Shown here: piece by piece, positions 15,090 to 57,273 of the stretch
Layout: every line of letters starts with the position of its first letter
Position numbering within the stretch: position 1 is the stretch's first letter
Origin: Chloroflexaceae bacterium
GTDB lineage: Bacteria > Chloroflexota > Chloroflexia > Chloroflexales > Chloroflexaceae
NCBI GenBank assembly: GCA_034436755.1
Contig: DAOTVB010000015.1
Span: forward strand, 56,516-120,515
DNA: 64,000 bases
Reading direction: 5' to 3'
Position numbers and translations under genes: made by a program
Notes under the pieces: generated by a model
Database searches by the model: none
Told to the model about the DNA's origin: nothing
What the model saw: only the letters and a program-made list of their open reading frames with translations

Positions 15090-15530
15090 ATGAAGACATC
15101 GGTGTCCGAATTATTACACGAGGCGCGCATGGCTGCGCCTCATCTTATCTCAATTCGTTCCGACTCGGATATTATCGCGGCGCGGATGGCTGCCCGCGAT
15201 ATGGCGCGAAGTATGGGGTTCAGTGCCATTGATCAGGCGCGCATTGCCACAGCAACCTCCGAATTGACCCGGAATATCCTGATCTACGCCGGCGAGGGAA
15301 CGGTTACGCTTAGCCAGGTGCATCGCGATAACCGGACAGGTATTGAGATGGTGTTTGCAGATCAGGGGCCGGGTATTGCCGAGATTGAGCAGAGCCTGCA
15401 GAATGGCACGTCGGTCGGTGGCATACCAGGCATGGGGTTGGCCGGGACACGTCGCCTGATGGACGAAATGGACATTGAATCGACCATCGGAGTAGGCACC
15501 CGCATCACCTGCCGGAAATGGTTATCCTAG
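15090..15530 (+). CDS. RsbW-like anti-sigma regulatory factor / GHKL serine kinase, orphan
   Basis: 146 aa. Motifs SELTRNILIYAGEG and GMGLAGTRRLMD. Candidate TATAAT promoters upstream. Confidence 0.62.
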   Translation: MKTSVSELLHEARMAAPHLISIRSDSDIIAARMAARDMARSMGFSAIDQARIATATSELTRNILIYAGEGTVTLSQVHRDNRTGIEMVFADQGPGIAEIEQSLQNGTSVGGIPGMGLAGTRRLMDEMDIESTIGVGTRITCRKWLS

Positions 15531-18547: not shown

Positions 18548-18820
18548 CATCTGCCCTCGTTCAGTGCAACGCCGGCCAGGATGATCCGGACCAGAGAGGA
18601 GAGGCAAAAACCCTGCCGGGCCGTGAATGAGCTAGTTTCGAACCTGATACGCTCAGGTGGGTGCCCGTCCACGAGGTCTGCGGACCACCGCATAGCTCGC
18701 TTGATCCAGGCTCCCTATCGAAACTCTGTTGGCTCAAAACATTCACCCATCCACGTACCAGGCGGGGTTAACCCGGATCATACCATACCGCTTCCGAACG
18801 TGCAAGGTGTACAAAAAATC

Positions 18821-40837: not shown

Positions 40838-42088
40838 ATGCTGGAAGACTTTAAGCGGGAAGAGGGTCTGCGCCACTTCCATCGAGGATTAACCCTTGAA
40901 CGCGCCAACCGCGTCATGGAGGCCGTTGAAGCCTATCGGCAGGCCGTGGCCCACTATCCACACCTGCGCGAGGCCCACGATGCGCTGGGCTTTTACTATC
41001 AGCGCCATGGGTTACTGGCGAAGGCCGCCGATGAGTTTCGCATTGTCACCAACCTTGATGGGGACTTTCTCTCCTTCTTTAACCTGGGCTATGTCCTGAT
41101 CGAGCTGGAACGGTATGAAGAAGCCCTGGAAACATTTCAGCGCTGCCTCCAGTTTGCCCCGGAAGACTCGGCCACACACTATGAACTGGGGTTGATCCAC
41201 TTCTCGCGGGGCGAGTTTGGCGCCGCGCTGGAACATCTGCAGCGGCCGCTGCGGAGTTATCCGGAAGACTGGGAAGTACACAATCTGATCGGGAAGTGCC
41301 ATCTGGAACTGCGCCAGTATGACGAAGCGCTCAGTGCCTTTGGACGAGCGCTGATACTGGCCCACATCCCCGAGACCCAGGCTATTCTCCTCGAAAACAT
41401 CAACACGGTTGAACGCTATCGCGAGTTTCGTAATCTCAACAGTACCAAAGATCAGGTCTATGCGCAGGATGGCGTGGTCTACCTGGGATCGGCCCAGGAC
41501 GATGGACTCAGCATTACCGCCGCCCAGGACTACCACTTCACCTATCCCGATATCGGGACGACCGTCCAGCGCCTGCTGGCGCTGCATCAGGGATGTCGCT
41601 GGCATTTTACTGCGGTCGTGGCGGTCGATAAGCTGGCCTACCCGCTGGCCGTCAGCCTCAGCCAGTTGTTGAACCTGCCCCTGCGGGCGGTGACTGAACT
41701 CAACCCGGACGATACCGCCCTGCTGGTGATGGCCGTGGCGCGCGAGGCCGAACTGCTGGCGCTGACCATCGAACGCGCCCCTTGCCAGAGCGTGTCGTTC
41801 TGTATGGGGCTCAACTGGTTGCGCCACAACAAGATTCTGCCCGATGTGATCGGGATTGTGGCACAGGAAGCATGCAGCGTGCCCTGGGAGGCCGAACTGC
41901 GCCGCCTCCGCGCCGATGGTGCGCCCGCCGCCCAGATCGACGCCTGTCTGGACTATGCCATCAGCGCAATTGATCAGGCCGTCCGCGAAACTCCGCTTGA
42001 TGCCAACCTGCCGCGTCAGGTGCGCTACTACACCCGTAATCACCGCCGTCTGACCTTCTCGCTACTCCACGAGCAGACGGTTGTGTGA
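40838..42088 (+). CDS. TPR-repeat protein with a C-terminal domain of unknown function
   Basis: 4-5 TPR-like helical pairs fill the N-terminal 200 aa (AVEAYRQAVAHYP..., ALETFQRCLQFAP...). Confidence 0.55.
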   Translation: MLEDFKREEGLRHFHRGLTLERANRVMEAVEAYRQAVAHYPHLREAHDALGFYYQRHGLLAKAADEFRIVTNLDGDFLSFFNLGYVLIELERYEEALETFQRCLQFAPEDSATHYELGLIHFSRGEFGAALEHLQRPLRSYPEDWEVHNLIGKCHLELRQYDEALSAFGRALILAHIPETQAILLENINTVERYREFRNLNSTKDQVYAQDGVVYLGSAQDDGLSITAAQDYHFTYPDIGTTVQRLLALHQGCRWHFTAVVAVDKLAYPLAVSLSQLLNLPLRAVTELNPDDTALLVMAVAREAELLALTIERAPCQSVSFCMGLNWLRHNKILPDVIGIVAQEACSVPWEAELRRLRADGAPAAQIDACLDYAISAIDQAVRETPLDANLPRQVRYYTRNHRRLTFSLLHEQTVV

Positions 42089-42560: not shown

Positions 42561-42860
42561 CAAGATCGCGTAACGCACATCAGCACGGGTCGTTTCGCGT
42601 TTTTCGCTCATTTCGCGGCGTTCGTGGTCCAAACTTTCACCGCGCAACGCCTGTTACAGTTACCCGCCTTACGCGGTGGTTCATCAAACGGGGCGTTTCA
42701 CCCGGTGAACGGCAGAAGCACCTGCTGCCGCAGGTACTTGATCTATACTTTTGCAGCAATGTTGCGCCTTACGCAACATTGCTGCAAAAGGTTGGAAATC
42801 CGCTTGCGTCGTGTTGCAGCTTACACGATTTCGTGTTATTCTATTGTTACGTTACCGTGT
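42561..42860. repeat. Repeat element copy 10 plus an accessory module; hairpin 42749-42789
   Basis: The accessory module gtttcgcgtttttcgctcatttcgcggcgttcgtggtccaaa is also present at 48085-48135. Core: ttttgcagcaatgttgcgccttacgcaacattgctgcaaaa. Confidence 0.8.
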
Positions 42861-42873
42861 AAGGCAGCATGCT

Positions 42874-43827
42874 ATGATCCGTCTGGGCTTCGCGGTGCGG
42901 GTGGTCGGGCAGCCGGCGCTACGCGCTTATGAGCGGCGACGACACCCGGCCCCCGATCTGAGTATCAATCTGATCTATCTGCGCGATGTGCTGGTCTACC
43001 TGCAGCGCGTGGGCATCCGGTTCTACCGCATTGCGTCCACGCTGCTGCCGGATGCACCAGGCATAAACGCATTTGAACAACTGACCGCATGTGCAGTTGA
43101 GCTGGATGCGCTGGCTGCCCAGGTCACGGCACAGGATGTCCGGCTCACGCTCCATCTGGATCACCATATCGCCCTGGGCAGTGCCGATGATACCCAGGCG
43201 GCGCGCAGTCTGGCAACCATCGAAGCCCAGGCCGCCCTGCTGGAGCGGCTCGATGCCGGGCAGTCGCCGGGCATGCCGCCTGCGGGTGTACTGGTGACGC
43301 ATGTGGGCGGCCCGACGCATACCCCCGCCACGCTGCAACGCTTTGCCCGGCGCTACCAGGCGCTGTCGCCCCGGGCCCGCGCGCGCCTGGTGGTCGAGCA
43401 TGACACGGGCGGCTTTAGTCTGGGACGCCTGCTCAGGCTGCATCAGCAGTGCGGTATCCCGGTCGTTTTTGACTACCTCCACTGGCAGATCCACAACCCG
43501 GAGCGACTGCCACCGGGGCTGGCGCTAGGGCTGGCGCTGGCAACCTGGCCGCCCGGAGTACGCCCGGAAGTGCATCTCAGCACCGCACGGAGCGAGGCGC
43601 ATCTGCTGCCGGCGGCGGCGGGGCAGAGTGGGCGCGTGTTGCCCCCCCGTCCCGGCCAGCACGCCGATTTTATCGCTGCCGCCGATCTACTGCACCTGCT
43701 CGACGCGGCGCGCGGGTTGCCGCCCTTCGACCTGATGCTGGAAGCCAAGGCCGGCGATCTGGCGCTGCTGCGGCTGCGTAGCGATATTGCCCGCATAAAT
43801 CCGGCGCTGGCCGCACGGCTGGCATAA
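42874..43827 (+). CDS. uvsE: UV-damage endonuclease (UvsE/UVDE family)
   Basis: MIRLGFAVRVVG is a canonical UvdE start and the TIM-barrel pattern follows throughout. The internal ATG is preferred over the track start at 42751, which lies in the repeat. Confidence 0.78.
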   Translation: MIRLGFAVRVVGQPALRAYERRRHPAPDLSINLIYLRDVLVYLQRVGIRFYRIASTLLPDAPGINAFEQLTACAVELDALAAQVTAQDVRLTLHLDHHIALGSADDTQAARSLATIEAQAALLERLDAGQSPGMPPAGVLVTHVGGPTHTPATLQRFARRYQALSPRARARLVVEHDTGGFSLGRLLRLHQQCGIPVVFDYLHWQIHNPERLPPGLALGLALATWPPGVRPEVHLSTARSEAHLLPAAAGQSGRVLPPRPGQHADFIAAADLLHLLDAARGLPPFDLMLEAKAGDLALLRLRSDIARINPALAARLA

Positions 43828-44278: not shown

Positions 44279-45427
44279 ATGCGTACTATCGCCGTTGCAT
44301 CACTCGTACTCCTGTTTGGTTCCCTGGCAATCATGTATATCGCGCAGCCAACCGCCCTGCTGCTGGCAATTGGCGTTATTATTCTGGCCGTTGGTGCGGG
44401 GCTGGCGTTCCTGGGCAAACAGCGCGAGGTTTTGCTGCTGGGGAGCCTCTCCCTGCTGCTCTCAATTGCGGCAGCCGGGCTGATTGGTCAGGCCAGTTGG
44501 GGCGCAACCGGGGCACTGATTGTACCGCTAATCTGGGTGTTGCTGCTCTATGCTGCTCTGACGTGGGCCTGGAACAATACCATCGATATCCCCAGCGGGA
44601 CGGTTATGGTCATCCGGCACCCTAACGGTATCCGACTGCGCGAAGGACCGGCGCGCATTATTCCGCCGCTACCCTCTTTTGAGCGGCATATCGCCACCAT
44701 GCCTACCTACGAGTTGTCGAGTAATTTTACCGTTGAGCATCTCAACACGCGGTCGTTGCAAAATATCAACGGGATTGCGCTGGATGTAGGCTATCAGATA
44801 CGCCTGCCGCTCAAGCTGCTGGCTAACCTGCCGAACCGGGCCCGGCTGATTGAGGAGATGGCAAGTGAAACGGAGCAGAGTCCGGAGCGCGCCATGCTGC
44901 GCACGGCTTTCTGGGAGCGCCTGCTGGATCGGCAGATCCGCGAGGTTATCGACGGCCTGCTACGGTCGGCGGTCTATGAACATATCAACCGGGCCGTCGA
45001 TGGCAGTAACGAGCGCAATAAACTGGCCGACGAGGTAGAGACCCGCCTGCGCGAGTCGGTGCAGCACTGGGGCATCACCATTCACTTCCTGGAAATCCCC
45101 TCCGTGACGCTTGATCCGGAACAGATCAAGCGTAGCAAGCGCGAGTATGCCATCAAGCGCGAGATCGAAGATGCCGAACGTGCCGCGCGGATCGAAGCCC
45201 AGAAGATCGAGATGATGGGCAAAGCGCAGGCCCAGGTGCAGGCCCACGCGATTGCCAGTTGGATCAAAGCCATCCAGGATCAGGGCGTCAACCTTGCGCC
45301 CGAAGATATCGAGCAGATCGTACTGAACGCGCTGGAGGAGATGAACGAGAAGTACCGGCGGGTCGAGTTGTTTACCGGAATGAAGAAGCCCCAGCACGCG
45401 CAACAGGAGCGCGCGATTGGTAAGTGA
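44279..45427 (+). CDS. Membrane-anchored SPFH/band-7-like domain protein
   Basis: 4 N-terminal TMs are followed by an SPFH-like region and an Ala/Glu/Lys/Arg-rich coiled coil. GGAGG RBS. Confidence 0.55.
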   Translation: MRTIAVASLVLLFGSLAIMYIAQPTALLLAIGVIILAVGAGLAFLGKQREVLLLGSLSLLLSIAAAGLIGQASWGATGALIVPLIWVLLLYAALTWAWNNTIDIPSGTVMVIRHPNGIRLREGPARIIPPLPSFERHIATMPTYELSSNFTVEHLNTRSLQNINGIALDVGYQIRLPLKLLANLPNRARLIEEMASETEQSPERAMLRTAFWERLLDRQIREVIDGLLRSAVYEHINRAVDGSNERNKLADEVETRLRESVQHWGITIHFLEIPSVTLDPEQIKRSKREYAIKREIEDAERAARIEAQKIEMMGKAQAQVQAHAIASWIKAIQDQGVNLAPEDIEQIVLNALEEMNEKYRRVELFTGMKKPQHAQQERAIGK

Positions 45428-45976: not shown

Positions 45977-46720
45977 GTGAGTCAGGCCAAAGAAGCGCAG
46001 GACATGAAACCATCGCTCTCACCTGGCGGTATCGCCTCAATGCTGGTTGTGCTGGCTGTTTTTATCGCCCTCGCCTGGCTATTGATCAACCGGGCGGAAG
46101 CGTTACAACCGGGTGACACAGCCGCCGAAGAACCGGCCCACGGAGAAGTTACTGAGGCAGAAGAGGTTATTCCCGCCGAGGGAGAAGCAGAGGAGCAAAC
46201 TATCGTGCGAACCTATGATGCACCGCCCCCAATGACCATTAATCCGGAGCATGAGTATACCGCGACGATTACGACACCACGCGGCGATATTCGGATCAAG
46301 CTGTTCCCGGAGGTTGCCCCGCAGACCGTCAATAACTTTGTCTTCCTGGCCCGGAACGACTTCTACGACGGTTTGACCTGGCACCGGGTTATTGCAGACT
46401 TTATGGCTCAGGGTGGCGATCCGGCCGGCACCGGCGCGGGTGGCCCCGGTTATAGCATTCCCGCCGAGTTTTCGGATGAACTGCGGTTTGACCAACCCGG
46501 CAAGGTGGCGATGGCTCGCTCAGCCAATCCCGACAGTGCCGGATCACAGTTCTTTATTACCACCGCACAGGCACCCTGGCTGAACGGGCAGTACACCATC
46601 TTTGGCGAGGTGCTTGAGGGCCAGGAGATTGTGAACAGCATTCCGTTGCGCGACCCGGCTATGGCAACGGAGCCCGGCGAAGAGATTGTTGAAATCACCA
46701 TTACCGAGAGCGAGGGATAA
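45977..46720 (+). CDS. Cyclophilin-type peptidyl-prolyl cis-trans isomerase, N-terminally membrane-anchored
   Basis: FHRVIxxFMxQGGD-like (WHRVIADFMAQGGD) and FFIT motifs. There is an N-terminal TM helix and an acidic linker. GTG start with a TATAAT promoter 40 nt upstream. Confidence 0.85.
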   Translation: MSQAKEAQDMKPSLSPGGIASMLVVLAVFIALAWLLINRAEALQPGDTAAEEPAHGEVTEAEEVIPAEGEAEEQTIVRTYDAPPPMTINPEHEYTATITTPRGDIRIKLFPEVAPQTVNNFVFLARNDFYDGLTWHRVIADFMAQGGDPAGTGAGGPGYSIPAEFSDELRFDQPGKVAMARSANPDSAGSQFFITTAQAPWLNGQYTIFGEVLEGQEIVNSIPLRDPAMATEPGEEIVEITITESEG

Positions 46721-46788: not shown

Positions 46789-46892
46789 CTGTTGGTGGGT
46801 TGTTGTGATGTCATAACCGCAGGCGGGCCGAGGTGTGGTACACTCTTATCCAGACCCATATCGTGCCAAGATTAGCGAAAGGAGCTAACCGT

Positions 46893-47651
46893 ATGCCCGA
46901 GCATAAGCCGATCGCGCAGCAGCCGGATGCATGGTGTACCCTGGCGCAGCAGACGACCGAAGCCATGCAGGTCTGGTATGATTTCTTCCAGATGACTAAC
47001 ATCACCGGGTTGCATATGGTTGGGATGGGGGTTTATACCACCACTGCGCTGTTGAAAACAAATACGCACCTGCTGCAGACGCTCCTGGAGAATGCCTTCA
47101 GTATAAGTCGGGTTCATGGCTATGACTGGCAGACAACGCTCTTGCCAGAGAACGGCATGTATGCCCGGCAAGCGCCCCCAGTGGACAACCGGCCCATAAC
47201 CAATGGCAATGGCAATGGCAATGGTTCGCCGGCAGAACCAACCATTGATGCTTCCCCGGAAGTGCCGGTAGCAGTTACCACACCTGTCACCAACGGCGCG
47301 GTGGATAGTGTAGTAGAAGTTGAGGTCAGCCCCCCGCAACCGCCCCGCCGGGAAGATATCGGCGCGGTAGGCCCAGAGGCCGGCTTTTATTTCACCGGAC
47401 CTGACGATCAAGCGCACCACGCGGTCCACAATCTGACCGATTTTGTCCAGCAGAGTGCAGCGGTTGACGACACGACCTGGATCTACCATCTGCACCGGGG
47501 CGACTATAGCAACTGGTTTCGCTATGTCGTTGCGGATGCCGAACTGGCCGACGCCGCCGCGCAGATTGAGCAGGAGGCGGATGTCACCCCGGCAGACAGC
47601 CGCGACCAGGTGCAGGCGCTGATCACGGAGCGCTACGCGGTGCAGGTGTGA
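46893..47651 (+). CDS. Hypothetical protein with internal (NG)4 repeat
   Basis: AAAGGAG RBS before ATG 46893. (GGCAAT)3 encodes NGNGNG. No recognisable family. Confidence 0.45.
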   Translation: MPEHKPIAQQPDAWCTLAQQTTEAMQVWYDFFQMTNITGLHMVGMGVYTTTALLKTNTHLLQTLLENAFSISRVHGYDWQTTLLPENGMYARQAPPVDNRPITNGNGNGNGSPAEPTIDASPEVPVAVTTPVTNGAVDSVVEVEVSPPQPPRREDIGAVGPEAGFYFTGPDDQAHHAVHNLTDFVQQSAAVDDTTWIYHLHRGDYSNWFRYVVADAELADAAAQIEQEADVTPADSRDQVQALITERYAVQV

Positions 47652-47659
47652 GTTCTATC

Positions 47660-47880
47660 GCCATTTGTCATTTGACAGGAGTTACGCGGTTGAGATCCAA
47701 ACCGGACGTTTGAACCGATGGAAGTCTGTTTCGCCTGCGGCAGCATGGTACATTTTGATCTTTTTTCACAAAAAATTTGCACAAAGTGCAAATTTTTTGT
47801 GAAAAAAGATGGTTTCTTCCGCCCTGCCGGAGGCGGAATCTCCTGTCGGGTCAACGACCGCGTAAGTCGTGTCAAATGAC
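47660..47880. repeat. Repeat element copy 12; hairpin 47765-47803; the 3' module contains a perfect 17-bp palindrome
   Basis: cgcctgcggcagcatggtac, then ttcacaaaaaatttgcacaaagtgcaaattttttgtgaa, then cttccgccctgccggaggcggaatctcctgtcgggtcaacgaccgcgtaagtcgtgtcaaatgacacgacttacgcgg. Confidence 0.9.
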
Positions 47881-48150
47881 ACGACTTACGCGGTCGGCAT
47901 GCAAACCGGGCGTTTGATCCGATGAACACCCGCTTCGCCTGCGGCAGCATGGTACTTGATCTTTCTTTTTCACGAAATGTTAGCTCGAAGAGCCAACATT
48001 TCGTGAAAAAGAAATGATATCTTCCGCCCTGCCGGAGGCGATAACCCCCGCCAAACGCGGGATCGTCTTATACCTATCAGCACTGGCCGTTTCGCGTTCT
48101 TCGCTCATTTCGCGTTGTTCGTGGTCCAAATCCCCACCGCGTAACTCGTG
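47881..48150. repeat. Repeat element copy 13 plus an accessory module; hairpin 47969-48007
   Basis: cgcctgcggcagcatggtac, then ttcacgaaatgttagctcgaagagccaacatttcgtgaa, then cttccgccctgccggaggcg, then gtttcgcgttcttcgctcatttcgcgttgttcgtggtccaaa. Confidence 0.85.
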
Positions 48151-48239: not shown

Positions 48240-50732
48240 TTATTTCTTGCGCCGGACCCAGCCGCGTTTAGGCTCCTCAACGCTCTGGCGCAATTTCGCC
48301 AGATCATTCTGGATCTCGTCCGGCTCCGGTTCCGGTTCACGCTCGGGCGGTTCCTGCGGCTGGCGCGGCTCCTCCTGCGCCGCCAGATCGCTCAATGAGA
48401 TCCGTTTGCCCGTCTGCACCTTTTCCGCACCCGTGGTCGTCTCGGCTGTCGGTTCGGGCAGATCCACCGGCCGGGGCGAGGGCGGTTGCTCCTCCTGCGC
48501 CGCCAGGTCACTCAGCGAGATCCGTTTGCCCGGTTTGATCTTTTCCGCACCCGTGGTCGTCTCGGCTGTCGGTTCGGGCAGATCCACCGGCTGGGGGGGG
48601 GATGGTTGCTCCGGTTGCTCCTCCTGCGCCGCCAGGTCACTCAGCGAGATCCGTTTGCCCGGCTTAAAGCGGGTGGTTTCGGGCGTCTCTGCGGCCGCGG
48701 GCGGTTCCTCCAGCATCGGGGCGAAGGGCTGATCCGCCGGGAGCATTTCCGCACCAGGCTGCTCCGGCAGCGGCGGCATAGCCGGCTCGGGTTGCGCCGG
48801 TTCAACCGGTTCAGCCACCGGCGCGCCCGCCTGACCATTAACCGACCGCAGTGCTGCCGGCCGCGCCACACCCACCTGTTCATCTACCACGGGGGCGGAG
48901 ATGACCGCATCAACATAGGGACTGGGAGCCTGCGCCGCACCCAGCGCGACTAACCACGCCCAGATCTGTGCGCAACGCTGCGTGGCATCCTCCGGCAGGC
49001 GCAGCGGTCGCCCGCGCGCATCGATGACCACACCCAGCGCGCTCCCCTTGATGGCGGCAATATCGGTCTGAACTTCTTCCCCCGGTTCATTCTGCCCGAT
49101 CCGCACATTGGCCGCCGGTCGCAGGGTTAACTGCCCGCTGCTGCTCTGATCCAGCCGCAGACGGGCAATCTGCCCATGCCGCACCGTTACCCGCCGCGAC
49201 TTGCCGCGCCGGGAAGTCAACTCGGCCTCAACCGCGACCTCACCGGGCTTGCCCTCCCCCAGCGGTACCACGCAGGTTGCCAGCGGCACATTACGCAGCA
49301 GATCACGTTCAAAGAGCGTCACCGCCGCATCGGGATTGAGTTTTGCCAGCACCCCACAGGCCGGCAAGAGCCCCAGGATATCGAGATGCAGATCGAGCGC
49401 CAGCAGACTCTCCCCAGTGGTCGGCTGGAGGACATCCAGCAACATCAACGCCGCCATACCGGGATGCGGCGCATGCGCCAGCACCCCGCCACCCGCGATC
49501 ACCAGATCATAGTCCAGGTCAGGATCTTCATCGGTGAGGGTTTCCAGCAGGAGTGCCAGCACCTCGCGGGTTATGGCCTGTTCGATAAACACATCTTCGC
49601 GGCTGGCGGGCAACATCTGCGGGCGCAACAGCTTATTCAGCAGCCAGTGCGTCAGGTCGGCCTCGCTGATGGGGAAGGGCAGCCAGCGGGCAATATTGGC
49701 CACACCGCGCGCTTTGAGCAGGTTGGTAATGCCATACGCGGTGCCACATGCGCCCAGGATCGATAGGGTATAACTGCCGGGGCCGGCGTGGAAGGCGCTG
49801 CTGCCGGCCGCGCCGACATCCAGCGTTAACACCTTGCGGCTATTCCGCTCGGCGATAAAGCGGGTCATCAGCCCGGACATACTACAGACCGTTGTCACCG
49901 GCACATGACACATGCGACGCAACGTCGGGAGACCGGGCAGACGGGTGAGGACGCGCTCGTCGTACAGACGACTCAGCGCCTCGCGGGCGGGCTCGAGCCG
50001 CTCCTGCGTCAGCGATGGTCGCACATTATCTACCACCAGCGTCTCGGCCCGCCCAGAGAGCGCCTCGACAACCTGATCGCGGGCATCGCTGTTGCCGGCA
50101 TAGATCACCGGACGGGCCATCAGGTTCTGGCTTTGCTGGCCGCTGGCATCAACCGAGGTACGCAGCGCGGTTAACCCCACGATATGCGCCAGACGGTGCA
50201 GCGCATCGGTTGCGCCACCCTCAAGCCCCCCCGCAATAAAGACGGCATCCGGCTCCAGGGAGAGCATCGCCTGGATCTGCCGCACAATCCAGGAAGCGCC
50301 GCCGCCACTGGAGCGCATCATGGCATCATCAAGCGTAATCACCTGCAGAATGCTGGTGTAGGTGCTGCGACAGGCATGCAGCGCACTCCGGGCCGAGACA
50401 TCGCTGGCAATTGCCGTCACCACCAGCGCCAGCGTGCCGGTCGCACTGGTGACACAGATCAGCCGGTCAACGCCGTCACGCTCGTTATTCTGCGGCATCA
50501 GCAGTTGACCTTCGCGCAGCAGTTGCCGCCCGATAGTCTCGCTGATCTGCGCGGCGGCTTCCAGGATGCCGAACAGGGCATTCTGGTGTGGCGGCTCCAG
50601 GCTGCTCGGCACCTCGGCCCGACCAATCATGCGGTGCTCGCCATCAACCGTATCAACCAGCGTGACACGCGTGATCAGGCTGCCAATTTCGGCAATAAGG
50701 ATCGAATCAGGTGGTGGTGGTGTATCAGGCAT
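48240..50732 (-). CDS. GlmL/MutL-type (PF13941-like) actin-fold ATPase domain protein with C-terminal 3x tandem ~38-aa repeats and a basic tail
   Basis: The N-terminal ILIAEIGSLITRVTLVD phosphate-1-like motif is followed by an about 600-aa actin-fold-like region. The C-terminus carries PVDLPEPTAETTTGAEKIKPGKRISLSDLAAQEEQP x3 and ends ...KRGWVRRKK. The family assignment rests on pattern memory. Confidence 0.55.
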   Translation of the reverse strand: MPDTPPPPDSILIAEIGSLITRVTLVDTVDGEHRMIGRAEVPSSLEPPHQNALFGILEAAAQISETIGRQLLREGQLLMPQNNERDGVDRLICVTSATGTLALVVTAIASDVSARSALHACRSTYTSILQVITLDDAMMRSSGGGASWIVRQIQAMLSLEPDAVFIAGGLEGGATDALHRLAHIVGLTALRTSVDASGQQSQNLMARPVIYAGNSDARDQVVEALSGRAETLVVDNVRPSLTQERLEPAREALSRLYDERVLTRLPGLPTLRRMCHVPVTTVCSMSGLMTRFIAERNSRKVLTLDVGAAGSSAFHAGPGSYTLSILGACGTAYGITNLLKARGVANIARWLPFPISEADLTHWLLNKLLRPQMLPASREDVFIEQAITREVLALLLETLTDEDPDLDYDLVIAGGGVLAHAPHPGMAALMLLDVLQPTTGESLLALDLHLDILGLLPACGVLAKLNPDAAVTLFERDLLRNVPLATCVVPLGEGKPGEVAVEAELTSRRGKSRRVTVRHGQIARLRLDQSSSGQLTLRPAANVRIGQNEPGEEVQTDIAAIKGSALGVVIDARGRPLRLPEDATQRCAQIWAWLVALGAAQAPSPYVDAVISAPVVDEQVGVARPAALRSVNGQAGAPVAEPVEPAQPEPAMPPLPEQPGAEMLPADQPFAPMLEEPPAAAETPETTRFKPGKRISLSDLAAQEEQPEQPSPPQPVDLPEPTAETTTGAEKIKPGKRISLSDLAAQEEQPPSPRPVDLPEPTAETTTGAEKVQTGKRISLSDLAAQEEPRQPQEPPEREPEPEPDEIQNDLAKLRQSVEEPKRGWVRRKK

Positions 50733-50810
50733 AGGTATTTCAACCGTCAGAGTTGAGTAGTCAGCGATCTACTGACTGCCAGTTTATCAATTTATCTATC
50801 GTCTACCCGT

Positions 50811-51461
50811 TCAAAAGGTCCAGGTCACCAGAAACTCGAGACGCTCACTCAGCGCCGCCAGGTAGGTGCGCAACGCCCCGGCCAGAAAGAAGCCCAGTGC
50901 AACCATCAGGAGCCAGTAGCCGACATGGGCACTGCCCGCCACCAGCCGCCCCAGACCCGTATCGCGCCGCACCGTAAAGTAGAAGTAGCTCAACGTCAGG
51001 ATCACGCCTATAGCCAGCACCGCCGTGCCGATAAGCTGCGGCAGGGTGTTTCCGGCTGGTTGCACCGTATCGATCCACTGCGGGTAGAGCGTCCCCACCA
51101 GCACGCCACCCAGCGCCAGAGCCGCGCCGACCCCAAAGAGCAGCGCCAGGGGAATATTTGCCAGCCAGGAGAAGCCCTGCCGCCCGGTAATCCGGGGCAG
51201 CAGCAGCAGACCCAGGATAAACGGCACGAGCGTGAGGTAGAGATCGAGACTCTGCGGGTTCTCCGCCCCCAGCAAGACTTGAACGACCGCCGGCCAGAGC
51301 ACCTGATGGTAGAGCACCACAAAGGCATAGCCCAGCGACACCCCGATAAACAGGTATTGCGCCAGCCGGAACAGCGGATTATTTTCCGCCCAGACGATCC
51401 GGCTGAACACAAACAGGGTCAGCACAACGCCAACAATTTTGACTACAAGCGCCGTCGCCAT
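50811..51461 (-). CDS. Polytopic integral membrane protein, ~6 TM, unknown function
   Basis: 216 aa, almost entirely hydrophobic helices. Its start overlaps the upstream giant gene stop by 1 nt (TAATG). Confidence 0.5.
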   Translation of the reverse strand: MATALVVKIVGVVLTLFVFSRIVWAENNPLFRLAQYLFIGVSLGYAFVVLYHQVLWPAVVQVLLGAENPQSLDLYLTLVPFILGLLLLPRITGRQGFSWLANIPLALLFGVGAALALGGVLVGTLYPQWIDTVQPAGNTLPQLIGTAVLAIGVILTLSYFYFTVRRDTGLGRLVAGSAHVGYWLLMVALGFFLAGALRTYLAALSERLEFLVTWTF

Positions 51462-54400
51462 TACTCCTCGCTCTCCGGGTGCAGCTTCGGCTTCGGCTGG
51501 AGCAGCAGGCCGGCAATGCCCCCGACGATAATCAGGACCACAAAGACCAGCGCGGCGAAATGCTGCAATCCACTGGAGCGAATAGCCGCCACATCATCCA
51601 CACCGCCGCCACTGGCCGCCGCATAATTTAGCGCGCCCTGCCGCCCGACCAGTTGGTAGACATTCGGGTAGCGCAGGTAGGGTTGCACCACCGGCGCGGT
51701 CTCAAACGGCAGCAGGAAGGCCATCGGCACGTCGGGGGTGCTGGTATGCACCTGCTCAATCCAGCCCTGCACATCCTGCGGCTGATCGGCCATAATCAGG
51801 ATCAGATCAAAGTCGGCAACCGTTTCCAGTTGAGTCTGTTCGACCATCCAGCTTCTGGTAGCATCCGCACCCGAGAATGTTCTGAATGACTCGGTAAAAT
51901 TCTGCTGAACCAGACGGCGCAGGGCAAACTCGCCTCCCGGCTGGTAGCCCATCAGCACATAGTCCCGCCCCCCCAGGTCTGCGGTGCGCTGCTCGTCGGT
52001 ATTGTAGCCGGCGGCGCGCAGGGGATCACGAAAGTTGAAGGAGAGCAGTGTGCCCTGCGGATCGGTGCTGAGCACCACAAAGCGCACATTCTGCTCAATC
52101 AGATGCTGCGTAACGGCGGTCTCGAGCGGACGCAGTTCGCTGCTGCGCTGGGCATCCCACTCGTAGGCCACCAGCACAACATCCTCCTCCGAAAGCCCGG
52201 CGACAATGCTGGACAACTCACCGGCAGCGGGGGCCGCCGGATTGGCACTTCCCAGAAACCCTGTTACGGACGGAACAAACAGCCCAATCAGCAGCGCCAG
52301 TGCCAGCAACAGGTAGAGGACGCGCTCCAGACCAACCCGCCGCCAGCGCGCCGGTTCGGCGGGTGCCGGCGTGAGGGTCGTCTCCGGAAATGGTCGGGCC
52401 ACCAGGCGTTGCAGCAGCGCGGCCGCTTCCATCTGGGCCGGGCTGCGCGTGAAGGTTGGCCGGGGCAGCACGGTTGGTGAGGTGGTAGTTGCCACGACTG
52501 GTCCTTCGGCCTCTTCTTCGCCCACACCCAGGTTCGACAGCCAGTCTACCTGCTGCGACTCTTTGGTGCTGACGCGGGGCTCCGGTTCGGTGGGCCGCAA
52601 CCACTCCGGCAGATCCGCTCCACCCAGGAAGCTGCTGCCCTCATCAGCGGTACCGCGTGGTTGCACCGCAGCGGGAGCGGGGGCCTGCGCTACCGGCTCC
52701 TCCCGCAACCAGTCCGGAACATCCTCCTCCGACCCTTCATCCTGCAGCCAGGACGGCAGTGCGTCATCAACCGGCTCTGCGCCGGATGGTGCCGGTGGCG
52801 GCGGGGGTGCGGACGAGCGCGGCGGGAGTGCCGGCTCTTCTAACTCGGTATCGGCACCCTGCAACCAGGAGGGCAGCCCGCCGGTCTGGTCCGCCAGGGG
52901 ATCGTTGGACTCGTCGGTCATCCAGGGCGGCAGATCGCTGCTATCGGTTGTGTCGGTTGTGTCGCTGCCGGCAGCCGGAGGTGCGCTCTCGCCACCAGTC
53001 AGCCAGGCAGGGATATCTTCGGCTCCGGTATCCGCCGGCCCAGCCGGTTCCGCCGTTGCTGCGTCATCACGCAACCAGTCGGGAACATCCGCATCCGGGG
53101 CCGCCGGCGCAGACGGTGGGGCCGCCGACCCGGTATCCGCCGGTCCAGCCGGTTCCGCCGTTGCCGCGTCATCACGCAACCAGTCGGGAACATCCACATC
53201 CGGGGCTGCCGGCGCAGACGGTGGGGCTGCCGACCCGGCATCTCGCAGCCAGTCCGGCTCTTCGGCTTCCGGCAGTGCCTCGGCTGTCGGCGCAGACGGT
53301 GCATCGGCGGATAGCCAGTCAGGCAACTCCTCTTTCTCGACCACATCGGGCATGCGGGGCGGTTCCGCGTCCGACTCCGCGCTCACATCAGCCCGCAGCC
53401 AACTGGGCAAATCTTCCTGGGAGGCTGCCGCACCGGTTGAACCTACATTATCCGCCAGCCAGTCAGGGAGTTCCGTTTCGGCAGCCGCGTCTGCTGGCGC
53501 GGGTGTATCGGCCTCTGACACGGATGGCGGTTCATCTATCGACTGCAACCAGTCAGGCATTGCCCCGGCGTCCGCCATCGCGCCGCCCTCTTCGGGTGGC
53601 GCAGCCTCATCACTCTCGGGCATGGGGGGTGGTTCATCAACGCCCCGCAGCCAACTGGGTATCGCGGCATCTTCCGGCGCGGTTGGGGCTGCGGGCACCT
53701 CGGACTGAGGAGACCAGTCCGGCGTACTGCCGGCTTCGGTCGGCGACTCATCTGCGGAAGCACCACTCAGCCAGGAGGGCATCTCCGGCTCGCTGCCCGA
53801 CGCGGCGGGCTGGTCAAACCAGTTGGTCGTATCCCCCGCTCCGGTTGATGGATCTTCAGGAGTCGCGCCACTCAGCCAGGCGGGCATTTCCGGCGCACCA
53901 CCCGGCTCGCTGCCCGACGCGGCGGGCTGGTCAAACCAGTTGGTCGTATCCCCCGCTCCGGTTGATGGATCTTCAGAAGTCGCGCCACTCAGCCAGGCGG
54001 GCATCTCCGGTTCGCCGCCCGACGCGGTGGGCGCGGTAGTTTCCGGCGGTGCCCCCGGTTCACCCTGGAACCAGTCGGGGATACCGGTTTCTGTGACACC
54101 GGGGGGTTGCTCCGGCGACTGCAACCAGTCCGGCGACTCAGCCGATGATGGTGGTGCTGCCGGCATATCCAAACCAGTTTCGGCAATATCGCGGGAGACT
54201 TCATCGGGCGAGATATCGCGCAGCCAGTCGGGGATACCGGGCTCATCGCCGGCAGGGGATGCGGACGGCGTATCCGCCGGTGCTGCCTCTGCAAACCAGT
54301 CCGGCGACTCTGCGGCCCCAGGTGGCGTGGTGGGAGATCCACCTTCCGTCGCCGCAATATCGCGGGCCATCTCGTCCGGCGAAATATCGCGCAGCCAGTC

Positions 54401-55291
54401 GGGGATACCGGGCTCTTCGGATAATTCCTCCTGGTGCTGGTGGGCTGCGTCCGCAGCCGAAGCCGCGCCGGCCACCATCCAATCAGATGACTCCGTTTCT
54501 GCGGGGGCGGGTGGCGTGAACGGCTCCGGTTCCGCGCTATCGCGGGCTACTTCGTCCGGTGAGATATCCCGCAGCCAGTCGGGCACACCGGTATCACCCT
54601 CACCCTCTGGGCGCTCCGCCTGCTCGGCAGGGGCTGCGGTTGGGCCACCCATCTCCGGTTGCTCGGCAGGCGCAGGCGCAGACTCGGCATCATCTTCCCG
54701 GCCCAGACTGCGCAACCAGTCGGTTGCGCCGACGGGCATCTGCACCCGTGACGCAGGCTGATCCCCGGCTTGATCGGCCGCCGCTGCTTCGGTGGGGAAG
54801 CTATCGGCAGCCTCCGCCGGTGCCGACTCCTCCGGCTGGGCAGTTGCGCGGAGCCAGTCCGGCATTTCTGCGTCATCGGGCTGCGAGCTATCAGACGGGG
54901 CAGCCTCCGCCGGCAGATCGGACGACTGCGCGGCCGTCAGACTGGTGAGCCAATCCGGCTGATCATCAACCGGCAGCGGCTCGTCCTCTTCCATTGCCCC
55001 GATATCACTCTGCAGGTCACGCAGCCAGTCCGGAATAGCCGCATCCGCAGCACTGGACGGGGCTGACTCCTCACTGCGGAACTGGTCAGAGTCCACCGCA
55101 GCCGCAGCCGCAGCCCCCTGCAACCAGTCCGGCACCGCCTCCTCCGGCTCATCGGGTGGGGCGGCCTGCTCCTCGGGCGGAGCGGCCCGCGAAGGCGGAC
55201 GGGGAGGTAGAGGTACGCCCCGCAGCCAGGGTGGCAGCCAGGTTGCATCGTCTGAGTCACCAAATTGCGATCCGCGAGATATCCGATCCAT
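51461..55291 (-). CDS. Giant acidic repeat protein (1276 aa): about 900 aa of low-complexity D/E/P/A/S-rich sequence with >25 [IL]PDW[LF] short-motif repeats, then a TM helix, an about 330-aa domain, a second TM helix and a short tail
   Basis: An uninterrupted ORF. IPDWLRDISPDE(V/M)ARD and related motifs recur every 25-40 aa, and near-identical 105-114-bp DNA repeats are present. The C-terminus carries two TM segments (VLYLLLALALLIGLFVPSV and FAALVFVVLIIVGGIAGLLL). Confidence 0.7.
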   Translation of the reverse strand: MDRISRGSQFGDSDDATWLPPWLRGVPLPPRPPSRAAPPEEQAAPPDEPEEAVPDWLQGAAAAAAVDSDQFRSEESAPSSAADAAIPDWLRDLQSDIGAMEEDEPLPVDDQPDWLTSLTAAQSSDLPAEAAPSDSSQPDDAEMPDWLRATAQPEESAPAEAADSFPTEAAAADQAGDQPASRVQMPVGATDWLRSLGREDDAESAPAPAEQPEMGGPTAAPAEQAERPEGEGDTGVPDWLRDISPDEVARDSAEPEPFTPPAPAETESSDWMVAGAASAADAAHQHQEELSEEPGIPDWLRDISPDEMARDIAATEGGSPTTPPGAAESPDWFAEAAPADTPSASPAGDEPGIPDWLRDISPDEVSRDIAETGLDMPAAPPSSAESPDWLQSPEQPPGVTETGIPDWFQGEPGAPPETTAPTASGGEPEMPAWLSGATSEDPSTGAGDTTNWFDQPAASGSEPGGAPEMPAWLSGATPEDPSTGAGDTTNWFDQPAASGSEPEMPSWLSGASADESPTEAGSTPDWSPQSEVPAAPTAPEDAAIPSWLRGVDEPPPMPESDEAAPPEEGGAMADAGAMPDWLQSIDEPPSVSEADTPAPADAAAETELPDWLADNVGSTGAAASQEDLPSWLRADVSAESDAEPPRMPDVVEKEELPDWLSADAPSAPTAEALPEAEEPDWLRDAGSAAPPSAPAAPDVDVPDWLRDDAATAEPAGPADTGSAAPPSAPAAPDADVPDWLRDDAATAEPAGPADTGAEDIPAWLTGGESAPPAAGSDTTDTTDSSDLPPWMTDESNDPLADQTGGLPSWLQGADTELEEPALPPRSSAPPPPPAPSGAEPVDDALPSWLQDEGSEEDVPDWLREEPVAQAPAPAAVQPRGTADEGSSFLGGADLPEWLRPTEPEPRVSTKESQQVDWLSNLGVGEEEAEGPVVATTTSPTVLPRPTFTRSPAQMEAAALLQRLVARPFPETTLTPAPAEPARWRRVGLERVLYLLLALALLIGLFVPSVTGFLGSANPAAPAAGELSSIVAGLSEEDVVLVAYEWDAQRSSELRPLETAVTQHLIEQNVRFVVLSTDPQGTLLSFNFRDPLRAAGYNTDEQRTADLGGRDYVLMGYQPGGEFALRRLVQQNFTESFRTFSGADATRSWMVEQTQLETVADFDLILIMADQPQDVQGWIEQVHTSTPDVPMAFLLPFETAPVVQPYLRYPNVYQLVGRQGALNYAAASGGGVDDVAAIRSSGLQHFAALVFVVLIIVGGIAGLLLQPKPKLHPESEE

Positions 55292-55406
55292 ATGCTTCCG
55301 TTATACGAGCATGCAAGCAGGCACAATCAACCCTGCAACTGCTTCCATCCTCACCTGGTATAGCGATAAAACATTTATTCCCAGCGACATTATCGATCTG
55401 TCGATC

Positions 55407-56048
55407 CTATCGGTCAAGGTAGGGCTGATCAAAGCCGAGCAACACCCGCACACTTGCCACCAGCGTACCGATGGCGGCCCCCAGCAGCAACCCGCGCGCC
55501 CCCGCCAGCGTGACATACTCATTAAACCAGCCAAGTGCTTCGCCGACCAGGGGCAGTGCGGCAACCGGCGGCAACCCCAGAATAAGCACCAGCAGCGCCA
55601 CCACGACAATCACCATCGCCGGAACATTCCGCTCCCGCACCGTACGCAGGATCGCACTCAGGCTAAAGAAGGCCAGAAGCGCCAGCAGACTGCTGGCAAG
55701 CGGCACATAGACCGCCTCAAAGAGCCGCCGGATTGGCTCCTCGGCCAGATTAACTCCGGGCGGACCAGCCAGACCGACAATAATCACCGTAAACATTGCC
55801 AACAGCAGCACGGCACTATAGATCCAGTCGGCATCGCGCCGGAACACGCGTGCGGCATGCGAAAAGGCCACATTAATCAACCCGACCAGGAGGGCCAGGG
55901 CCGTCAGGATCGCCGCCCACTCCACCAGATAGCTGGAGAGGCCACCAACGCCCGGTGCAGCCCGGGCGAAGTCTAACAACACGATGGCCCCGGCGACACC
56001 GGCAATCAGGGTTGCCAGGAGGCGTTTTGGATCGCGGAAAAAGGTCAT
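55407..56048 (-). CDS. Polytopic integral membrane protein, ~6 TM, unknown function
   Basis: 213 aa, hydrophobic throughout. It lies 16 nt downstream of the preceding gene. Confidence 0.5.
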   Translation of the reverse strand: MTFFRDPKRLLATLIAGVAGAIVLLDFARAAPGVGGLSSYLVEWAAILTALALLVGLINVAFSHAARVFRRDADWIYSAVLLLAMFTVIIVGLAGPPGVNLAEEPIRRLFEAVYVPLASSLLALLAFFSLSAILRTVRERNVPAMVIVVVALLVLILGLPPVAALPLVGEALGWFNEYVTLAGARGLLLGAAIGTLVASVRVLLGFDQPYLDR

Positions 56049-56064
56049 TCACTACCCTCTCACG

Positions 56065-56871
56065 CTATAACAGCCCCGGCAGCGGCGGCAGGCCGAGCGT
56101 CGGCTGGAGCAGACTGTAGAGCAGTCCGCCAATAATCAACAGGATAATCAGCGTACGCAAGAAGTCCTGGGTCAACAGCCGCGACTGGGGCGCGGGGATC
56201 GTTGCCAGGTAGGCCTCCGCCGCAAACACTTCCTCGCCAATCAAGACTGACCGACTGCTCAAAAACATCACCGGCAGCGCGGCGGAAGAGGTACTACCCG
56301 TCACCTGGGGCACCTGGCGCATTGCGCCTTCCTCGCCCAGCAGCAGAAACTCCTGCCCGAAGCTCCCCAGCAGTTGGCTGGCCTCTAACCGCTGCCGGGC
56401 ATAGATCGCCGCAACCCCGGCTGCATAGGCCATCGAGTCATCGTGGGCCAGCAGTTGCACATTGCGCGGATGGTAATCCTGCCCCTGTCCCGCCTGCTGG
56501 TAGGACTGGCGAATCGCCCCGCGCAGTGCCAGATGCGACACCGCATCGCCACTGCTTGCCAGGATATGCGCGCCGTTGAAGGCCGCTTCACTCGCCACCC
56601 GCTCAACGGTCAGCAACCCAACCACCGTTTCGGCGGTAGTTGCGCGATTACCGATCGTCCCGGCCCCCGGCGACACATGGATTGCGCGCCCGGTTTCGGC
56701 GCCGCGCCCGAGGGCGGCCCAGAGCAGATCGAGTGCCGGCAACGGCCGACGAAAGGGTGTCCATCCGGCGCGGATACGCGCATGATACCAGAGCGTCAGG
56801 ATCAACACACCCAACGCAACAACTAAAAGAAGAATCGTTTCCGGGGGGAAATTCAGGAGAGGCATAGACAC
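56065..56871 (-). CDS. Membrane protein: N-terminal TM, about 200-aa soluble domain, C-terminal TM; first gene of the operon
   Basis: GAGGAG RBS 6 nt before the ATG. TMs are LLLVVALGVLILTLW and LIILLIIGGLLYSLL. Confidence 0.5.
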   Translation of the reverse strand: MSMPLLNFPPETILLLVVALGVLILTLWYHARIRAGWTPFRRPLPALDLLWAALGRGAETGRAIHVSPGAGTIGNRATTAETVVGLLTVERVASEAAFNGAHILASSGDAVSHLALRGAIRQSYQQAGQGQDYHPRNVQLLAHDDSMAYAAGVAAIYARQRLEASQLLGSFGQEFLLLGEEGAMRQVPQVTGSTSSAALPVMFLSSRSVLIGEEVFAAEAYLATIPAPQSRLLTQDFLRTLIILLIIGGLLYSLLQPTLGLPPLPGLL

Positions 56872-56947: not shown

Positions 56948-56965
56948 TGTGTGCAATTACACACA
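56948..56965. promoter_or_regulatory. Candidate operator palindrome upstream of the five-gene operon
   Basis: TGTGTGCAATTACACACA lies about 80 nt upstream of the first start codon. A TTGACA -35-like hexamer sits between it and the RBS on the minus strand. Confidence 0.35.
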
Positions 56966-57024
56966 ACACTTTACAGCCCTGGCGGGCAACGTGCCTTTGA
57001 GTGTAACCCAAAAGATCGGCTTTG

Positions 57025-57273
57025 TCAACTTTCCTGACGGGCTAAAAGACGGCGTAATTCTTTCCAGCCGGCCTCCTTCGTCAGGGCCACAGCGTAACGC
57101 TCAAAACTACAGCCGGTCGTAAAAGGCCGGGCGAACAGGGCCAACTGGCTGCTGAGGAAGTCGAAGGGCCGGATCATATCCAGGGCGAAGCTGACCGGCG
57201 CACGCAGCCCGGCGTTGGAGAGATGATCCGCCAGATGCTGGAGCGCCTCATGATGCTGGTCGGTTGGGGACAT
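57025..57273 (-). CDS. Small hypothetical protein, 82 aa
   Basis: ORF from the internal Met (MSPTDQHHEALQHL...). It overlaps the SRPBCC gene 3' end by about 26 nt. Weak call. Confidence 0.3.
   Translation of the reverse strand: MSPTDQHHEALQHLADHLSNAGLRAPVSFALDMIRPFDFLSSQLALFARPFTTGCSFERYAVALTKEAGWKELRRLLARQES

Follow-up and report, generated by a model that had tools for sequence, protein, structure and literature searches.

A Chloroflexaceae gene cluster encoding a DUF6754 protein, a motif-array membrane protein and a GlmL/MutL-like ASKHA protein: one lineage's version of a widespread putative membrane system

Gene organization of the locus

Contig DAOTVB010000015.1 of a Chloroflexaceae bacterium contains, within the 64,000-nucleotide stretch analysed here (the window), a compact minus-strand gene cluster for four membrane proteins, a GlmL/MutL-like ASKHA protein and a small soluble protein. 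Comparison across genomes indicates that the system is widespread rather than a speciality of Chloroflexota, and that this locus represents it in one lineage. An earlier note on this DNA had described it as an uncharacterised five-gene operon. Our check of the open reading frames (ORFs) returned the five minus-strand ORFs at the coordinates given there, with the same intergenic gaps (16, 115, -1 and 78 nt) and the same TAATG overlap. The tight linkage is real, but the operon has six genes, as an 82-aa gene, S, belongs to it too. Hydropathy and Pfam searches agree with the architectures described for all five products. The genes are as follows, with TM denoting a transmembrane helix.

S, 57025-57273, minus strand: 82 aa, soluble, the sixth conserved gene
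g1, 56065-56871, minus strand: 268 aa; TM, about 200 soluble residues, TM; DUF6754
g2, 55407-56048, minus strand: 213 aa; about six hydrophobic segments by hydropathy
g3, 51461-55291, minus strand: 1276 aa; long N-terminal region, then two TM around a domain of about 220 aa
g4, 50811-51461, minus strand: 216 aa; about six hydrophobic segments; its start overlaps the g3 stop (TAATG)
g5, 48240-50732, minus strand: 830 aa; ASKHA domain, extra domain, linker and tail

The start of S overlaps the 3' end of an SRPBCC gene upstream. The earlier note found no assignable function, and none of the products has one. One of them does have a family, however: g1 matches DUF6754 (Pfam PF20539) over the full model and above its gathering score (2.2e-35, 122.5 bits versus a cut-off of 27, profile positions 11-248 of 257).

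Conservation of the locus in Chloroflexota

Annotated homologues of g5 come from Oscillochloris, Kouleothrix, Roseiflexaceae and metagenome-assembled genomes (MAGs) of Chloroflexales. Scanning one genome per species with a g5 alignment gave 77 loci; these and the further loci below are numbered with the prefix L. The record labels of the 77 are Chloroflexota except for L071 (Candidatus Gracilibacteria) and L078 (Bacteroidetes). The nearest locus belongs to a Chloroflexaceae MAG with 93% identity, and the furthest to Anaerolineales with about 30%.

We searched these loci with iterated hidden Markov models (HMMs) for each product and limited the order counts to loci with at least 6.5 kb upstream. 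The genes g1, g2, g4 and g5 have the same order and strand in 42 of the 43 Chloroflexota loci of this kind. In 69 of the 71 with enough DNA, g4 is directly upstream of g5, and homologues of S are located directly upstream of g1 in 41 Chloroflexota loci. A few loci show no match to g3C, the C-terminal part of g3; they have runs of N inside the repeat region, and the motifs are still visible. Public gene tables for Kouleothrix, Oscillochloris trichoides, an Anaerolineales contig and a Chloroflexus MAG agree with this arrangement, while L069 (Herpetosiphonaceae) is an exception to the shared gene order. Synteny across Chloroflexota, whose absence was to count against the proposal of the earlier note, is very strong.

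The system outside Chloroflexota

When the DUF6754 profile was run exhaustively with HMMER over 1.84 billion representatives, 1,862 clusters had E <= 1e-3, and 1,351 of them also had E <= 1e-10. Many of these proteins reach 400-1,146 aa, and the DUF6754 part forms their C-terminal end. In four distant DUF6754 loci, the HMMs built from Chloroflexota recognise g1-g2-g3C-g4 in this order, together with g5. The E-values across lineages are listed below.

g1: 1e-44 to 1e-74
g2: 1e-37 to 1e-53
g3C: 1e-27 to 1e-72
g4: 1e-27 to 1e-68
g5: 1e-128 to 1e-180

We further scanned metagenomes with a DUF6754 alignment from other phyla and kept 80 loci of at least 600 matches, so that the metagenome counts refer to the matches listed. 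Among them, g1-g2-g3C-g4 occurs in order in 37 of 38 eligible loci. S, g5 and a further gene, p375, stand beside the module in 13 of the 28 listed loci of at least 12 kb. At least nine metagenome loci contain three tandem copies of the module. In L100, L101, L112, L113, L136, L149, L150 and L161, three diverged consecutive copies lie beside a single g5-p375 pair, and the triplication suggests three paralogous complexes that would share one ASKHA protein. The neighbour genes of non-Chloroflexota loci include proteins sorted by the type IX secretion system (T9SS), TonB-dependent receptors and Fib_succ_major. These indicate Gram-negative hosts, which probably belong to the Fibrobacteres-Chlorobi-Bacteroidetes (FCB) group.

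The p375 protein (about 375 aa), the usual seventh component, begins with a barrel-sandwich hybrid domain; one of the p375 homologues scores 27.8 bits with Pfam RnfC_N (cut-off 25.6). Its gene follows g5 in the loci of other phyla and in those of the Anaerolineae type, but it was not found within 10 kb in any Chloroflexia locus, nor in the window. We also notice one or two ORFs of about 230-290 aa, matching no family, between g5 and p375 in several non-Chloroflexota loci (L087:15520-16925; L101:6420-7232; L113:2875-3738; L150:2732-3475; L162:1131-1877). These ORFs are candidates for an additional component.

Folds and topology of g1 and g3C

The models of g1 and g3C from AlphaFold2 (AF2) are confident (predicted local distance difference test, pLDDT, 89.7 and 86.1), and both show a TM, a Rossmann-like domain and a second TM. 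Each domain appears in these models as a generic Rossmann-like fold, and the fold matches give no function. For g1, the start at ATG 56865, located behind GAGGAG, is more likely than GTG 56871. The predicted parts of g3C are as follows.

g3C, 51461-52531, minus strand: conserved juxtamembrane helix, TM1, extracytoplasmic domain, TM2 and short basic tail
g3 TM1, 52244-52339, minus strand: residues 985-1016, by hydropathy
g3C Rossmann-like domain, 51587-52243, minus strand: extracytoplasmic by the positive-inside rule
g3 TM2, 51488-51586, minus strand: residues 1236-1268, by hydropathy

Basic residues precede TM1 and follow TM2 in the window protein and in five orthologues read whole (L001, L048, L061, L074 and L077). 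By the positive-inside rule, this distribution places the N-terminal region of g3 in the cytoplasm and the g3C domain outside. For g1 we predict the reverse, with the N-terminus outside and the domain in the cytoplasm, so that the Rossmann-like domains of g1 and g3C would lie on opposite faces of the membrane. Distant g1 homologues have N-terminal extensions that begin with a signal-like segment and contain FN3-like repeats (faint matches to Pfam fn3), which fits an outside N-terminus and a cytoplasmic DUF6754 domain.

Right behind the first beta-strand, g1 of Chloroflexales has a G-x-G-x-x-G stretch (G67, G69 and G72), of which only G67 is conserved across the family. No paralogy is detectable between g1 and g3C or between g2 and g4. 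A Pfam search of 43 g3C orthologues returned noise only, and profile searches of the PDB with g1, g5, g3C and p375 gave nothing meaningful.

g2, g4 and S

The polytopic proteins keep their places throughout: g2 is the second gene of the module, and g4 remains the fourth in distant loci. Neither matches a Pfam family, including transporter families and Rnf-Nqr. One distant g2 homologue shows a weak match to an NCBIfam 'putative transporter' model (3.5e-4, 19.7 bits versus a cut-off of 100). Across all components, NCBIfam gave only this match and sub-threshold ones of the GlmL type.

S has no match in Pfam or NCBIfam. An HMM made only from Chloroflexota sequences finds S beside the ATPase gene in unrelated metagenome loci, at 1e-9 to 1e-12. 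The anti-phage defence models of PADLOC, run on eight proteins, gave no matches at E <= 0.01.

The motif array of g3

The N-terminal region of g3 consists of short repeats centred on tryptophan.

g3 N-terminal array, 52532-55243, minus strand: about 35 copies of [D/E][L/V/I]P[D/A/S]WL[R/Q]; acidic, Pro/Ala-rich and presumably disordered

In the window protein, 35 x-P-x-W-[LFM] motifs fall within residues 17-920, and acidic residues greatly outnumber basic ones (238 D+E versus 55 K+R). A logo from 1,067 Trp sites of the orthologues reads [D/E]-[L/V/I]-P-[D/A/S]-W-L-[R/Q/S]-[D/G/E], with P at position -2 in 85% and L at +1 in 93%. Every Chloroflexota orthologue carries the motif, in 10-31 copies. 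Recent tandem duplications of 105 nt and 117 nt can be seen in g3 at the DNA level.

The earlier note counted the scaffold with its PDWL array among the parts of its possible machine, but the array is not one of the core parts. Homologues of g3 outside Chloroflexota are 276-309 aa long and have no array, so the array is a lineage-specific addition. Within the family, the array on g3, like the linker and basic-aromatic tail on g5 described below, is a Chloroflexota add-on.

The distant orthologues of L061, L069, L074 and L077 start with a CxxC...CxxC zinc ribbon (27.1 bits with Pfam Zn_Ribbon_1 on L061), which fits a cytoplasmic array. The ribbon is missing from the window protein; it was probably ancestral on the g3 tail and lost here. 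The array protein of L069 (7977-11929) combines a zinc ribbon, 18 LPxWL motifs and a single TM, and the external domain is absent. A tailed g5 homologue follows, with its start overlapping the stop of the array gene, and g1, g2 and g4 are not found upstream. This minimal pair of array and g5 ties the array to the ATPase.

g5, an ASKHA protein with additional segments

Residues 11-478 of g5 match Pfam MutL (PF13941) over the entire profile (1-450 of 450; 2.6e-61, 208.2 bits versus a cut-off of 27), and the fold is surely ASKHA. The protein divides into three parts.

g5 ASKHA domain, 49299-50702, minus strand: GlmL/MutL family, PF13941
g5 extra domain, 48933-49298, minus strand: residues 479-600, about 120 aa beyond the Pfam MutL model; contains GSALGVVIDARGRPL
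g5 C-terminal extension, 48240-48932, minus strand: Pro-rich linker, three GKRISLSDLAAQEE repeats and the conserved tail DLAKLRQSVEEPKRGWVRRKK

The PF13941 match and the three GKRISLSDLAAQEE repeats bear out the description of g5 in the earlier note as a GlmL/MutL-like actin-fold protein with C-terminal repeats. On the other hand, positive evidence for its cytoskeletal, actin-like filament reading is lacking: g5 falls into the GlmL/hydantoinase-like branch of ASKHA proteins, its phosphate-2 motif is degenerate, and no Pfam family other than MutL matches at E <= 0.1 (none of MreB, FtsA or ParM). A filament-forming role of g5 is neither supported nor excluded. The curated NCBIfam cut-offs are not reached either (GlmL, 59.8 versus 475; Or-4, 69.1 versus 600; glmL_fam, 46 versus 204).

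We compared the nucleotide-binding motifs with the ASKHA consensus (phosphate-1 DxG[ST], phosphate-2 DxGGxT[TD], adenosine GG). The window protein has AEIGS at phosphate-1, with D changed to E, LDVGAAGSSA at phosphate-2 and IAGGGVL at the adenosine motif. Distant homologues and those of other phyla have the canonical DCGSTTTK, DIGGATTD and GSGGVL. The hydrolytic competence of the Chloroflexia form is uncertain on these motifs.

The extra domain contains the GSALGVVIDARGRPL block, which is invariant across the Chloroflexia alignment at G563, S564, L566, G567, I570, D571, A572, R573, G574 and P576. The block is almost identical in g5 of the Anaerolineae type and recognisable in other phyla, for example as GGVVGILMDGRGRPF. 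In the C-terminal extension, Tandem Repeats Finder (TRF) detects the GKRISLSDLAAQEE repeats at the DNA level, with a 120-nt period and 2.4 copies. The linker and tail, ...L-R-Q-x-V-E-x-P-K-K-R-G-[FWL]-F-x-R-K-K, are exclusive to Chloroflexia. In the form L-R...P-K-(K)-R-G-[FLW]-F-x-R-K, the tail is present in 50 of 68 complete orthologues, from every Chloroflexia family, and absent from the Anaerolineae type. We consider DLAKLRQSVEEPKRGWVRRKK a candidate membrane-targeting sequence because of its basic-aromatic composition and its occurrence only where p375 is absent.

A proposed model of the complex

Our preferred reading, whose chances of being right we rate as evenly balanced, is that an old, widespread and undescribed membrane system is encoded here in its Chloroflexota version: a complex served by an ASKHA protein, to which the array adds a docking platform. 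The products g1, g2, g3C and g4 would assemble into one integral-membrane complex. This proposal draws on three observations: four unrelated membrane proteins co-occur in a constant order, their genes are duplicated as a unit, and they are frequently paired with S, g5 and p375. In the complex, g1 would supply a Rossmann-like domain at the cytoplasmic face and g3C one at the outer face, and g2 and g4 would contribute about twelve TM helices between them.

S and g5 would be soluble partners that act at the cytoplasmic face. The B12-enzyme reactivases, which are the nearest relatives of g5, have been proposed to act as nucleotide-dependent conformational drivers or chaperones. We propose that g5 plays such a part and think it unlikely to form filaments. 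In Chloroflexia, from whose loci p375 is gone, the flexible linker and the basic-aromatic tail may take its place and tether g5 to the membrane.

In all Chloroflexota, g3 would have gained a long acidic cytoplasmic tail with 10-35 motifs, ancestrally headed by the zinc ribbon. Its multivalency, its cytoplasmic location and the array-plus-g5 pair of L069 suggest that the array is a multivalent docking platform, which would concentrate a cytoplasmic partner at the complex; g5 itself is the most likely partner. Judging by the outer-face domains and by the extracellular FN3-like arrays that g1 carries in other phyla, the complex would serve the envelope or the surface rather than metabolism.

Several observations weigh against this model. 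Around one half of the longer metagenome loci lack an ATPase gene within 10 kb of the module, which indicates that coupling to the ATPase is not obligatory in cis. The 84 neighbour proteins surveyed from metagenome loci include no recurrent family and give no functional hint. The TM segments of g2 and g4 show no conserved charged residues that would hint at ion coupling. With E at phosphate-1 and a degenerate phosphate-2, the window g5 may bind nucleotide without hydrolysing it. The proposed topology derives solely from hydropathy and the positive-inside rule, and binding between g5 and the array is hypothetical.

The system appears to be new, as its components are shared with no characterised system and only one of the six products has a DUF number. 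We found no paper on DUF6754, PF13941, TIGR01319 or the system. It thus combines six or seven components, a gene order kept across distant phyla and about 1,900 clusters with a literature footprint of zero, and building blocks of bacterial cell biology that are so large and so unstudied are rare. The GlmL branch of the actin/Hsp70 fold, so far tied only to accessory functions of B12 enzymes, would gain a second, membrane-linked role. The locus would also define four new membrane protein families that are nearly always found together, and g3 of Chloroflexota would be a striking bacterial example of a multivalent array of short linear motifs. Recognition of the system would correct a widespread misannotation as 'glutamate mutase L'.

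Alternative explanations

One alternative is a nucleotide-gated transporter or channel, in which g2 and g4 would form the permeation path, the g1 domain would sense a nucleotide as KTN/RCK domains do in Ktr/Trk, and g5 would modulate the complex. The two 6-TM proteins per module, the glycine stretch of Chloroflexales g1 and the weak transporter match of one distant g2 agree with this idea. Against it stands that only G67 of that stretch is conserved across the family. Conserved polar or charged residues are absent from the TM segments of both g2 and g4, and the two proteins match no transporter family of Pfam. The external Rossmann-like domain, the FN3 arrays and the ASKHA protein would also be left unexplained. 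We consider this explanation unlikely.

Another alternative is a division-linked or cytoskeletal system, with an FtsA-like, tail-tethered g5. FtsA is the classic binder of the C-terminal peptide (CTP) of FtsZ, and the g3 array would be a multivalent mimic of this peptide. The array would dock g5 in the manner of FtsA or compete for FtsZ-binding proteins, linking the module to septation or filament integrity. The core of the peptide, D-[ILV]-P-x-F-[LM]-[RK], which binds FtsA, ZipA or SepF, agrees with the array except for W in place of F and the acidic residues downstream. The array logo matches the FtsZ tail of O. trichoides, DDLDIPPFLRNRNRGK, at the acidic, aliphatic, Pro, aromatic, Leu and Arg positions. 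The layout of g5, with its ASKHA domain, flexible linker and basic-aromatic C-terminal tail, resembles FtsA as well. The gene order in O. trichoides is ddl-ftsQ-ftsA-ftsZ-operon, with 130 nt between ftsZ and the start of the operon. Only Chloroflexota have the array, and its named hits (Oscillochloris, Roseiflexus, Kouleothrix, Herpetosiphonaceae and Anaerolineales) all belong to groups known as filamentous.

Several points count against a link to division. The aromatic residue of the array is always W and never F, and the residues after the motif are acidic, whereas those of FtsZ are basic. The adjacency to ftsQAZ is found in one genome of about 45, that of O. trichoides only. Moreover, Pfam does not match g5 to FtsA, MreB or ParM, its branch being the GlmL/hydantoinase-like one, and the core system is common among bacteria without the array. 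The likeness over six residues could also be due to chance. We rate as distinctly unlikely both the division reading and its central claim, that the array mimics the FtsZ peptide and wires an ancient membrane machine to an FtsA-like g5, possibly at the divisome, in filamentous Chloroflexota. If it were true, the array would rank as the first poly-CTP decoy or scaffold from nature, and the module would open a new class of membrane machines in which a GlmL-type ASKHA protein is the driver. A functional resemblance to the FtsZ tail would offer a handle on division and filament organisation in Chloroflexota, both of which are poorly understood.

A side observation concerns the ftsZ gene of O. trichoides DG-6 itself (L003:3600-3931). 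The FtsZ protein as called ends in an Arg/His-rich, out-of-frame tail, and the +2 frame yields the C-terminus that one would expect, SSDDLDIPPFLRNRNRGK. The draft assembly probably has a frameshift here.

A third alternative, which we regard as very improbable, is a gliding or surface-motility apparatus, in which the module would transmit force or anchor surface adhesins in filamentous bacteria. We know of no described gliding machinery in filamentous Chloroflexota. Gliding has been reported for filamentous members of the phylum, such as Chloroflexus aggregans and Herpetosiphon aurantiacus (PMC13104615). The extracellular FN3-like arrays of distant g1 proteins and the T9SS-sorted proteins encoded on several host contigs would suit such an apparatus. 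The system is also present, however, in Anaerolineales, which are mostly described as non-motile. It shows no ion-coupling residues and no motor homologues, MotA/ExbB appears in only two of the 84 neighbouring genes, and the association with gliding taxa is anecdotal.

There is next to no chance, finally, that g5 is glutamate mutase L, a methylaspartate mutase accessory protein (B12-enzyme reactivase) with the membrane genes as unrelated neighbours: the Pfam MutL match and the source names of orthologues ('glutamate mutase L', 'Methylaspartate mutase') speak for this label, which is wrong given the GlmL, Or-4 and glmL_fam scores far under the curated cut-offs, the lack of mutase subunit genes in any inspected locus and the near-constant linkage to membrane genes (g4 in 69 of 71 loci), and the extra domain and tail of g5 also fall outside the GlmL models. 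As for the subunit genes, glmS/glmE and oraS/oraE are neither in the Pfam-annotated neighbourhoods of L001, L003 and L081-L086 nor among the 30 longest ORFs of the window. For this subfamily, the mutase assignment is effectively refuted.

Regulatory elements and neighbouring genes

Scans of the flanks and gaps of the cluster gave the following elements, for which no strand is assigned except to the promoter candidate.

sigma-70-like promoter candidate TTGACA-17-TACACT, 57000-57028, minus strand: between S and g1; 10/12 in the consensus scan
palindrome TGTGTGCAATTACACACA, 56948-56965: 7-bp arms with a 4-nt centre, downstream of the promoter candidate
long hairpin, 47761-47807: perfect 20-bp stem, very A/T-rich, flanked by T/A runs; from the terminator scan

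Sigma-70-like sites are no commoner in this region than in shuffled sequence, and the site at 57000-57028 is a consensus match only. The palindrome, which the earlier note named as an operator candidate, is real, with one exact match in the window versus 0.06 expected by chance, and it may be an operator or a hairpin of the 5' untranslated region. Among 82 loci, though, it is kept only in the 93%-identical L004, and we rejected it as a conserved operator beyond this closest relative. A second promoter-like site, TTGACC-17-GATAAT (55389-55417, minus strand), overlaps the 3' end of g2 before the 115-nt gap and may be an internal promoter for g3-g5.

The hairpin at 47761-47807 is located about 430 nt downstream of g5, in the 590-nt space before a convergent ORF (46833-47651). 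It may act as a bidirectional terminator for g5 and this ORF. A 105-aa ORF (47633-47950) spans this hairpin and has homologues only in the closest relative.

A cyclophilin peptidyl-prolyl isomerase gene (45977-46720, plus strand), whose product has an N-terminal extension of about 95 aa, is convergent to g5 in 39 Chloroflexales loci. Since it is absent from the loci of the Anaerolineae type and of other phyla, it reflects local synteny and is not a member of the system. Genes for UvdE (42751-43827) and a tetratricopeptide repeat (TPR) protein (40838-42088) follow the cyclophilin in an order shared with Oscillochloris and Chloroflexus. TPR domains can bind W-acidic motifs.

Genes for membrane-stress or scaffold proteins (SPFH/Band 7, NfeD and PspA/IM30) are found within a few kb of the system in the window (44279-45427, plus strand), in L085 (7000-8325) and in L086 (18187-18330). 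The proximity in these three unrelated loci is probably a coincidence, and it does not recur among the 84 neighbour proteins.

Elsewhere in the window, a plus-strand gene (10995-12122) encodes a protein with a response-regulator receiver and a Roadblock/LC7 (MglB-like) domain. Two adjacent minus-strand ORFs of 391 and 779 aa (18821-19996 and 20055-22394) have no Pfam match at 1e-5. This pair adjoins a holA-like gene for DNA polymerase III delta (17570-18607) and lies about 1.7 kb from murJ (15527-17149). Between positions 26000 and 34000, where some 8 kb of genes lie on the plus strand, the GC skew climbs to +0.07 to +0.14, versus about 0 in the rest of the window.

Comparison with known systems

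The earlier note had called the operon uncharacterised, and our comparison found no confident homology of its components to any of them. The likeness of the g1 domain to KTN/RCK domains (KtrA/KtrC/TrkA) is that of a generic fold match with 8-11% identity. In contrast to these domains, g1 is TM-anchored at both ends, and its glycine motif is not kept across the family. The N-terminal domain of RnfC/NqrA recalls the system in two ways: one p375 lies at the RnfC_N threshold, and the two 6-TM proteins of about 210 aa resemble RnfA/E and NqrD/E in build. However, g2 and g4 have no Rnf-Nqr match in Pfam, flavin and Fe-S motifs were not seen, and p375 is missing from Chloroflexia loci.

In MreB-MreC-MreD/RodZ and PilM-PilN-PilO, as here, a cytoplasmic ASKHA protein is encoded with bitopic and polytopic partners that expose domains outside. 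These systems share no homologous component with ours in Pfam, and here the membrane partners belong to four distinct families, which can be triplicated. MamK-MamJ offers another parallel, since an actin-fold protein adjoins a very acidic, repetitive and probably disordered protein. In contrast to MamJ, g3 is membrane-anchored and has short W-centred repeats; g5 stands outside the MamK/MreB branch, and the two pairs show no homology.

FtsA with the FtsZ peptide is closer in layout. The actin fold, linker and basic-aromatic tail of g5 recall FtsA, and the motif [D/E][L/V/I]PxWLR resembles D-I-P-x-F-L-R. Sequence homology of g5 to FtsA is absent, the motif has W and not F, and peptide binding would be hypothetical. 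About 35 copies stand on a membrane protein, unlike the single copy on a tubulin homologue.

The nearest relative is GlmL/MutL (PF13941, TIGR01319), a hydantoinase-like ASKHA family, whose model the N-terminal 470 residues of g5 match from end to end. Distant g5 homologues of the system keep the canonical phosphate motifs and reach 228 bits with the GlmL model. In contrast to GlmL, g5 scores below every curated cut-off and stands without mutase genes nearby. It carries an extra domain of about 120 aa, keeps company with four membrane partners and, in Chloroflexia, has acquired a linker, a tail and a degenerate phosphate-2 motif.

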